Positions 23,004 to 23,798 of a DNA stretch of 64,000 nucleotides are shown in pieces. Position 1 is the stretch's first letter; the number at the start of each line of letters is the position of its first letter. The DNA is from Escherichia phage NHEP29. Below the pieces are notes generated by a model, which worked only from the letters and a program-made list of their open reading frames with translations, searched no databases and had not been told where the DNA came from. The translations under genes and the position numbers were made by a program. The stretch is from sequence record PQ511150.1, one strand, 5' to 3'.

Positions 23004-23201
23004 TTAGCAAGAATAACTAGATGATACCCAGCCTTGAACAGTAATACTATTATTTGATAACGAGATTGCGTTCTGGAGATTCAGACCTGCGTTATCTTCA
23101 ATCCATAATGTAACTTCTTCGCGTTCTTCTGTTGCAATTTGGAACAGGTTTTCCAGAGCAGCTACTGCCGTACGTACAGCACAATCTAATTCACGAGACA
23201 T
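23004..23201 (-). CDS. Small protein, GW(V/I)SSSxxC C-terminal family, member 3
   Basis: 65 aa ending QGWVSSSYSC. Confidence 0.6.
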   Translation of the reverse strand: MSRELDCAVRTAVAALENLFQIATEEREEVTLWIEDNAGLNLQNAISLSNNSITVQGWVSSSYSC

Positions 23202-23210
23202 ATGATTTCC

Positions 23211-23483
23211 TTAGCAAGTGTGAGAAGATGCAATCCAACCACCAGTTTCGAGGCTCAGGTTGTAGTCGTATTGGTAAACGTCGGCCCATTCAGCATAGCC
23301 GTTTTTTGTACAACGTTCAAGATCGGCTTTAAGATGTCCGGGTGAATGATAGGTTCCACCCATACCATAAGCTGGATACAAGTTGAATGTTGTGTTTTGT
23401 TTATCAGCAATTTCTTTGGCAGCCTCAATAGCTGCATAGATTTTTGCTACAGCTTCAGCCAGTTCGGTTTGTTCTTTAGACAT
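23211..23483 (-). CDS. Small protein, GW(V/I)SSSxxC C-terminal family, member 2
   Basis: 90 aa ending GGWIASSHTC; shares YGxGxTYxxPG motif with member 1. Confidence 0.6.
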   Translation of the reverse strand: MSKEQTELAEAVAKIYAAIEAAKEIADKQNTTFNLYPAYGMGGTYHSPGHLKADLERCTKNGYAEWADVYQYDYNLSLETGGWIASSHTC

Positions 23484-23492
23484 AATGATTCC

Positions 23493-23798
23493 TTAGCACA
23501 ACGCAGAAGACGAAACCCAAGCACCTTCAGTAATAACGTAACCATTACCTTCACGCTTAACATCGCCACCATTATTTTCAATTTCATCTTTCATCCACTG
23601 GGATACGATTTCACCCTTAGGATAATAAGTACGTCCGCTACCATAATCACCTACAGAAAATGATACGGCATATTGGTCTGCGATCTTTGTTGCTTCTTCT
23701 TCGATACGTTCAGCTTGATTCAGAAGTTTATAAATTGCATCTGAAGCGGATTTGGCATCGTTAAACTCTGGTACTTTAATTTCAATAATCTTACTCAT
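23493..23798 (-). CDS. Small protein, GW(V/I)SSSxxC C-terminal family, member 1
   Basis: 101 aa ending GAWVSSSALC. Confidence 0.6.
   Translation of the reverse strand: MSKIIEIKVPEFNDAKSASDAIYKLLNQAERIEEEATKIADQYAVSFSVGDYGSGRTYYPKGEIVSQWMKDEIENNGGDVKREGNGYVITEGAWVSSSALC

Follow-up and report, generated by a model that had tools for sequence, protein, structure and literature searches.

The window analysed here, 64,000 nucleotides (nt) of Escherichia phage NHEP29 (PQ511150.1), comes from a T-even phage of the Mosigvirus type; over the test stretch it shares 97.7% identity with AlbertHofmann and similar phages. On its minus strand lie three consecutive small genes, here called A, B and C, whose products share an ending that closes with a cysteine. 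The family of proteins defined by this tail, together with a larger gene that accompanies it, is the subject of this analysis. Gene A (23493..23798) specifies an acidic protein of 101 residues whose body is of the YG-x-G type and whose C-terminus reads GAWVSSSALC. Gene B (23211..23483) specifies 90 residues, with a body of the YGMGG type and the C-terminus GGWIASSHTC, and gene C (23004..23201) specifies 65 residues, ending in QGWVSSSYSC; the body of C is purely helical and has no YG-x-G loop. The tails proper, W-V-S-S-S-A-L-C in A, W-I-A-S-S-H-T-C in B and W-V-S-S-S-Y-S-C in C, are encoded on the same strand at 23496..23519, 23214..23237 and 23007..23030, respectively. The accompanying gene (21717..22673, minus strand), henceforth the partner, codes for a protein of 318 residues composed of a DUF7277 domain (residues 2-101; Pfam expect value (E) 1e-27) and a DUF7275 domain (residues 120-305; E 5e-79). 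Gene C ends at 23004 and the partner starts at 22673, about 330 nt downstream on the same strand. The RB69 orthologs of A, B, C and the partner are RB69ORF139c, RB69ORF137c, RB69ORF136c and RB69ORF134c.

An earlier note on this DNA, made from the letters alone, had singled out the three small genes. Its account of consecutive genes with a common W...Cys ending is borne out in reading frame, length and C-terminus; the strand, which it left unstated, is the minus strand. Among the stop-to-stop open reading frames (ORFs) of at least 30 residues in the entire window, A, B and C are alone in having a W..S[SN]..C ending. The YGxGxTYxxPG motif that the note ascribed to A and B survives in part: YGxGxTY is common to the two (YGSGRTYYPKG in A, YGMGGTYHSPG in B), and the closing xxPG is exact in B only. 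Pairwise BLASTP similarities are weak and consistent (E of 2e-4 for A-B, 2e-3 for A-C and 3e-4 for B-C). A and B match the family hidden Markov model (HMM) at E 2.4e-22 and 2.6e-21, and C matches it at E 0.08; the hhalign alignment of C with the main family spans the 13-residue tail only (E 1.6e-5, 79% probability), so that the body of C is not detectably homologous to the main family. Orthologs of C that retain the tail are nevertheless present in 251 phage records. The earlier note could match the shared ending to no family that it knew. Pfam, NCBIfam and PADLOC yield no match to A, B or C: scores for Peptidase_S78_2 and E217_Gp32 are weak and under cut-off, the match to PADLOC defence models is at chance level (E 0.01), and the DsrC/TusE profile gives nothing in Pfam/NCBIfam at E<=1. 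In PHROGs, A and B fall into phrog_899 and C into phrog_4882, two clusters of unknown function.

The local triplet is real, and it samples a family that is very large and phage-wide. An exhaustive HMMER search over 1.84 billion cluster representatives retrieves 200 of them at a cut-off of E<=1e-3, and 147 of these are short (median length 88 residues, mean net charge -8). The exact ending of 133 of the 147 is W-x-(S/A/P)-S-S-x-x-Cys-COOH; throughout these 133 tails the Trp, the Ser at -4 and the terminal Cys are invariant, and the Ser at -3 is present in 130. The YG-x-G loop occurs in 118 of the short representatives. Conserved in the family are Tyr, Phe, Trp and Asp residues, a Gly-rich loop and one Cys, but no His. 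The spacing from Trp to Cys falls into two main classes, W-x6-C (163 ORFs) and W-x4-C (52 ORFs), and the terminal module that defines the family is written as (G)-W-x-(S/A/P)-S-S-x-x-Cys-COOH or the shorter W-x-x-S-S-Cys-COOH. The same tail sits on bodies that are not detectably homologous, namely those of the C-type proteins and of five tandem tail-bearing ORFs on contig L081 that escape the family HMM. Proteins designated D-type have a body homologous to the main family and carry the motif twice, and 26 of the 147 short representatives have additional internal copies of W-x-S-S or S-G-C, placed in acidic linkers. A, B and C belong to an apparently phage-restricted family of small (about 65-120 residues), strongly acidic proteins. 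For bodies that otherwise diverge freely to keep a terminal Cys without exception, held in place by a Trp and two Ser, is out of the ordinary. The earlier note rightly called the Cys after a Ser tract unusual, suggesting that it might be a modification, metal-binding or targeting signal, and the feature is also strongly selected.

The new finding is that genes with this tail and the partner gene are strictly linked, in whichever direction the association is approached. The 80 viral loci of the survey (numbered with the prefix L) were retrieved with the partner-protein alignment; they span T4-like, ~98-kb and 300-390 kb jumbo contigs, and the identity of their partner proteins ranges from 98% down to 36%. 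An ORF was scored as tail-bearing if it ended in Cys, had a Trp 4-8 residues ahead of that Cys and at least two Ser in its last eight residues. By this rule the 80 loci contain 226 tail ORFs on the strand of the partner, as against 1 among 6,130 ORFs on the opposite strand. One to six tail-bearing genes lie upstream of the partner and co-oriented with it at 76 of the 80 loci; at least two of the other four have almost no DNA upstream. A narrower set, defined by the family HMM or by a fixed-spacing pattern, contains 195 ORFs, all of them co-oriented with the partner and 191 of them upstream of it, with a median gap of 933 nt. When the partners are clustered at 60% identity, the linkage is found to be kept in 23 of 25 lineages, and clustering of the same-strand ORFs leaves the Cys-tail family and the partner as the only two gene families shared across lineages. 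The pairing extends to a distant metagenomic T4-like contig, to phAPEC8 and to Acinetobacter phage Lazarus. The reverse test, which starts from independently found small proteins and looks for the partner nearby, locates it 0.3-1.2 kb downstream in five of six informative contigs. The partner is found in 733 phage records and, among the genomes of 185,579 species, in six contigs only, all metagenome-assembled; since it is widespread in phages and nearly absent from bacterial genomes, the module appears to be phage-restricted.

It is the peptide of the tail, and not the underlying nucleotides, that is conserved. The conserved (S/A)-S-S positions are encoded as TCG-TCT-TCT in A, GCA-TCT-TCT in B and TCA-TCT-AGT in C. 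A survey of 118 unique tails from viral contigs finds all six Ser codons in use at the invariant Ser positions, both TGC and TGT for the Cys, and TAA, TGA and TAG as stops. This diversity of codons, together with the lack of any Rfam match to the region on either strand, establishes that selection acts on the peptide, as the earlier note had claimed on the strength of the differing codons in A, B and C. One might have supposed that the common ending is a nucleotide-level signal, set by ribosome-binding-site or terminator context or by an RNA element, or that it arose by chance. Indeed, the A/B and B/C spacers are both 9 nt long and contain TAAGGA (stop plus Shine-Dalgarno), so that in the string TGC-TAA-GGA, at the ends of A and B, the Cys codon and the stop run straight into the Shine-Dalgarno sequence of the gene that follows. 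However, no Shine-Dalgarno sequence follows C, tails are virtually confined to the coding strand in the ORF counts given above, and the codon survey refutes this explanation outright, leaving it a negligible probability.

The AlphaFold2 model of A, built on an alignment of 120 sequences, has a predicted local distance difference test score (pLDDT) of 92.6 and a predicted template modelling score of 0.78. It consists of a long helix (residues 15-43) and a small sheet. The tail is modelled as a strand (93-96) followed by a helical turn (97-100), with lower confidence at the last residue alone. The tail of A is therefore, in this model, a structured part of the fold that presents the terminal Cys, rather than a loose tag. 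Sequence and fold searches detect no similarity of A to any solved protein, and the predicted fold is both confident and novel.

What kind of protein the partner might be is suggested by its N-terminal region. Residues G6, S7, D25 and D27 are invariant in 43 diverse partner sequences. Many other positions, occupied by His, Asp, Glu or Arg, are likewise invariant, and the sequences share the motif C-T-S-I-T-S-G-W-F-R. The pattern h-G-[GS]...D-h-[DE]-h is the signature of Pol-beta-type nucleotidyltransferases, with a classic spacer of 9-13 residues; the partner fits its G-S...D-x-D form with a spacer of 17 residues, longer than the classic range. DUF6036, which is described as a nucleotidyltransferase, is detected in 3 of the 43 sequences (best E 0.005) and DUF4269 in 1 of the 43, all under the curated cut-offs, and two phage records annotate the partner as a 'putative nucleotidyltransferase'. 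On these signatures the partner is probably an enzyme of the Pol-beta-type nucleotidyltransferase fold. Models of HD, HEPN, AbiEii and MenT in Pfam and PADLOC match none of the 43 sequences, and Pfam reveals no E1/ThiF or PafA signature in the partner. Two further ideas were rejected. Comparison of the partner with PDB sequences gives nothing significant, and the E of 0.16 for an RNase L KEN domain is likewise not significant. The most conserved motif of the partner, C-T-S-I-T-S-G-W (residues 272-279), could be read as a reversed Cys-tail with the same W-to-C spacing, but a reversed-matrix test lends this no significance: a score equal to or above that of the partner motif is obtained for 711 of 10,708 other ORFs, and the observed score is also attained in 10 of 200 column permutations.

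The interpretation that we favour, tentatively and at somewhat less than an even chance, is that A, B, C and the DUF7277/DUF7275 partner constitute a two-component module in which the partner recognises or modifies the tail. Held by its Trp and its two Ser, the tail would lie on the body of the protein in a fixed turn, and this turn would present the terminal Cys with its thiol and its free carboxylate. The partner would recognise the tail so presented, and would either dock on it or modify it covalently at a Ser hydroxyl or at the Cys thiol, for example by nucleotidylylation. The variable bodies and a copy number of one to six would serve to diversify the targets of the module in the infected cell, possibly for takeover of the host or for counter-defence. 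Docking on the tail, modification of the tail and regulation by the tail may each be what the linkage reflects, and all three are compatible with it. A bolder version would make the module a new phage system of tail-directed modification or conjugation, in which a nucleotidyltransferase-fold enzyme activates or modifies the invariant Ser-Ser-x-x-Cys-COOH end of diversifying carriers or adaptors that act on the host. The logic of such a system would by analogy resemble that of ubiquitin-like proteins or Pup, with unrelated folds and chemistry; we regard this version as unlikely.

A number of facts weigh against a partner that acts on the tail. The enzyme class of the partner rests on a short motif and on sub-threshold matches; hhalign comparison with E. 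coli GlnD (E 0.7, probability 0.1%) and with E. coli CCA (E 0.14) is not significant, PADLOC and NCBIfam produce nothing consistent for the partner, and its single-sequence structural model is unusable (pLDDT 37). Known Pol-beta-fold protein nucleotidyltransferases usually target Tyr, not Ser or Cys. As to the genes, the sixth contig of the reverse test, from a jumbo phage, has its partner ~25 kb away from the family member (another member adjoins the partner), and a hairpin and a promoter-like site, located below, part A-B-C from the transcription unit of the partner. Tail-bearing neighbours are missing beside the distant, partial homologs of DUF7275 that occur in actinophages, a Limnohabitans phage and KVP40, and no fusion of a tail protein with the partner was found.

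Several of the same observations would suit small proteins that act on their own, as oligomeric sponges or inhibitors of a metal, a small molecule or a host protein, with a pocket made up of the tail, the YG-x-G loop and the conserved aromatic residues, and with the linkage reflecting no more than a co-inherited cassette or shared regulation. The conserved Tyr, Phe, Trp, Asp and Gly-rich loop resemble the residues of ligand pockets, and the tail is folded into the domain in the model of A instead of projecting as a flexible tag. The proteins are very acidic and probably early, like many phage counter-defence proteins; A-B-C has a promoter-like site and a terminator of its own, and one family member can lie 25 kb from the partner gene. 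Since the D-type proteins have two Cys motifs, oligomers could also build a multi-Cys site. However, a single conserved Cys with no conserved His makes a metal site within the monomer impossible, and no similarity of sequence or fold connects the family to any solved phage sponge or inhibitor. Persistence of the linkage in 23 of 25 divergent lineages, while all the other neighbours change, is hard to understand without functional coupling. We consider stand-alone binding possible although rather unlikely.

Functional coupling could also take the form of a toxin and its antitoxin, the partner being a potentially toxic nucleotidyltransferase that modifies, for instance, transfer RNA (tRNA), as MenT and AbiEii enzymes do, and the Cys-tail proteins being what inhibits or regulates it; their tail would then plug its active site, possibly with the Cys thiolate placed on the catalytic metal. 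Small acidic genes upstream of, and co-oriented with, a nucleotidyltransferase-like gene are in the typical antitoxin-toxin order, many His, Asp and Glu residues of the partner are invariant, and at some loci PTH2, RNA ligase or tRNA genes are nearby. Yet a single inhibitor would suffice where up to six diversified paralogs are common, PADLOC and Pfam match the partner to none of AbiEii, MenT and HEPN, and confinement to lytic phages with absence from bacteria is atypical of such systems; both the arrangement as a whole and the plugging of an active site by the tail are quite unlikely. It is very improbable that the proteins are precursors akin to ribosomally synthesised and post-translationally modified peptides, from which processing would release or cross-link the W...C tail or the internal repeats through, for example, a Trp-Cys or a Ser-derived linkage. 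The W-to-C spacing, which most members keep at either 4 or 6 residues, the repetition of the motif in the D-type proteins and the extra internal W-x-S-S or S-G-C copies of the 26 representatives would be in keeping with this. But the tail belongs to a domain whose fold is predicted with confidence, an export signal is absent, and no radical-SAM, YcaO, lanthipeptide-type or protease gene recurs next to the tail genes, the DUF7275 protein being the sole recurrent neighbour. On balance, recognition or modification of the tail by the partner remains the interpretation that we prefer.

Comparison with better-known systems brings out what is distinctive about the module. A and B are matched by phrog_899, C by phrog_4882, and the partner, at full length, by DUF7277 and DUF7275, all of them names of uncharacterised clusters only; these entries record neither the tail, nor the relation of the two PHROGs to each other, nor the gene linkage. 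ThiS and MoaD, with ThiF and MoeB, and Pup, with PafA and Dop, are small modifiers or carriers defined by their tails and served by a dedicated activating enzyme. The Cys-tail proteins resemble them in being small, in having an invariant extreme C-terminus and in being encoded beside a (here putative) nucleotide-using enzyme. In contrast, their tail ends in Cys and not in Gly-Gly or Gln/Glu, they come as multiple paralogs per genome, and A, with its long helix and small sheet, has no beta-grasp match of the kind that would ally it with ThiS and MoaD; Pfam finds no E1-like (ThiF/MoeB) neighbour at any inspected locus. PII and HepT are small-protein substrates of the Pol-beta-fold nucleotidyltransferases GlnD and MntA. 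Here too a protein of ~100 residues is paired with a G-[GS]...D-x-D protein, and the YG-x-G-x-T-Y loop offers Tyr and Thr hydroxyls, as the tail offers Ser hydroxyls. However, the partner aligns significantly with neither GlnD nor CCA and has no HD or HEPN match in Pfam, and the members that have only the tail lack the Tyr loop.

The sulfur-relay proteins DsrC and TusE carry a conserved Cys on a flexible C-terminal arm and are thus likewise small proteins with a Cys, in their case functional, at or near the C-terminus; the Cys-tail proteins differ from them in fold and have no Pfam match to DsrC/TusE. Acb2 (T4 Vs.4), Tad1 and Tad2, which are counter-defence sponges or small inhibitors of phages, share with the Cys-tail proteins a small size, probable early expression and an accessory-region location, but the latter have no similarity of sequence or structure to any solved protein and no known ligand. 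Literature searches for these genes, for the PHROG and DUF accessions and for related terms yielded no relevant paper. The Cys-tail proteins thus match none of the known families considered here, and the partner is assigned to DUFs only. We place the module outside the known kinds of system, with strong evidence that it exists and is linked and with a mechanism that is inferred.

Hundreds of large lytic phages carry a conserved, multi-copy module whose role is wholly uncharacterised. They include T-even relatives (among them phages of therapy and of the BASEL collection), phAPEC8-like phages, 98-kb Pseudomonas phages, Acinetobacter phages and jumbo phages. The Cys tail and its strict linkage to one enzyme-like gene point to biochemistry that can be tested as docking, modification or regulation. 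If the proposed two-component relation is correct, it would assign a role to DUF7277, DUF7275, phrog_899 and phrog_4882, and could uncover a new means for phages to modify or deploy small effectors in takeover or counter-defence.

That these genes have not been studied is probably explained by T4. In the window, the cassette lies between e.2-side genes and e.3, and in the T4 annotation (62,000-76,000) e.2 and e.3 are directly adjacent, so that T4 has no cassette at the syntenic site. Refutation by way of a well-characterised T4 family, which the earlier note had envisaged, therefore does not apply. Both HMMs find neither family in T4 positions 1-50,000. We infer that the cassette is absent from the rest of T4 as well, since many more T4-type records would be expected than the 196 and 259 matching Escherichia-phage records. 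Loss of the motif in close relatives, which the earlier note would have counted against it if no phenotype followed, is seen in one gene of the RB69 reference (NC_004928; L110, 3735-4041), in which a 1-nt insertion splits the A ortholog into ORF139c and ORF138c. The tail is gone from the reading frame, and what is left of it out of frame shows, in addition, a Pro in place of a Ser that otherwise never varies; both B and C have stayed intact. Either A alone is dispensable in a viable laboratory phage, in which case redundancy among the paralogs is plausible, or the record contains a sequencing error. The B ortholog of phage mar005P1 (P0018) is similarly truncated.

The upstream edge of the cassette is formed by a gene for an e.3-like membrane protein of 119 residues (23795..24154, minus strand), whose stop overlaps the start of A (ATGA). 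A 'sulfurtransferase' label borne by the e.3-like gene of phage F31 (L010 1145-1504) has no support in Pfam or PHROGs. A consensus match to a promoter (TTTACG, 17 nt, TATAAT) occupies 23858..23886 on the minus strand, within the e.3-like gene of the window and 60-88 nt ahead of A. At the corresponding position the closely related phage SA79RD has an annotated T4-type middle promoter; these sequence elements suggest that A-B-C is expressed early or middle. After C comes a hairpin with an 11-bp stem (22961..22988, minus strand; fold energy -16.8 kcal/mol, z -3.64), at the equivalent of which SA79RD has an annotated terminator. The promoter scan places a promoter-like site at 22970-22998 of the minus strand, overlapping the hairpin, and the two probably mark the boundary between an A-B-C transcript and a partner transcript. 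Between C and the partner there is also an ORF of 79 residues (22702..22941, minus strand; phrog_3723, RB69ORF135c-like) with an H-C-T-I-C-P stretch. Its like is present at only 12 of the 80 loci, and it is a lineage-specific neighbour that falls outside the universal module.

The composition of the cassette varies among phages. JS98-like phages have five tail-bearing paralogs; in JS98 itself (L006, NC_010105) an ORF of 69 residues ending in FWFSSSMSC lies at 3781-3999, in a gap that has no annotated coding sequence. The D-type subfamily is represented at 31 of the 80 loci (e.g., L013:4893-5114), with an internal DW-x-x-S-S-C-Y-G-E and a terminal W-x-P-S-S-C. In the family member P0265 the Cys-tail domain is fused to an N-terminal DUF7230 extension. 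P0197 carries the JGI label 'regulator of RNase E activity RraB', which has no Pfam match at E<=1 to sustain it.

Genes related to nicotinamide adenine dinucleotide (NAD) or ADP-ribose, including ADP-ribosyltransferases, Sir2-like proteins and NAMPT with NMNAT/Nudix, recur in the vicinity of the module in a number of unrelated phages, though not in every one (L002 2620-3501, L096 4853-5167, L095 7206-8006, L094 6555-7295 and L105 255-2801). They could be a hint of function or simply the typical content of an accessory region. Neighbours related to tRNA, namely a PTH2 peptidyl-tRNA hydrolase and an RNA ligase, occur at some loci, and the partial DUF7275 homologs of Gordonia and Limnohabitans phages adjoin tRNA genes (L106 7960-8319, L108 8715-9761, L091 5850-8011 and L093 5073-5147).

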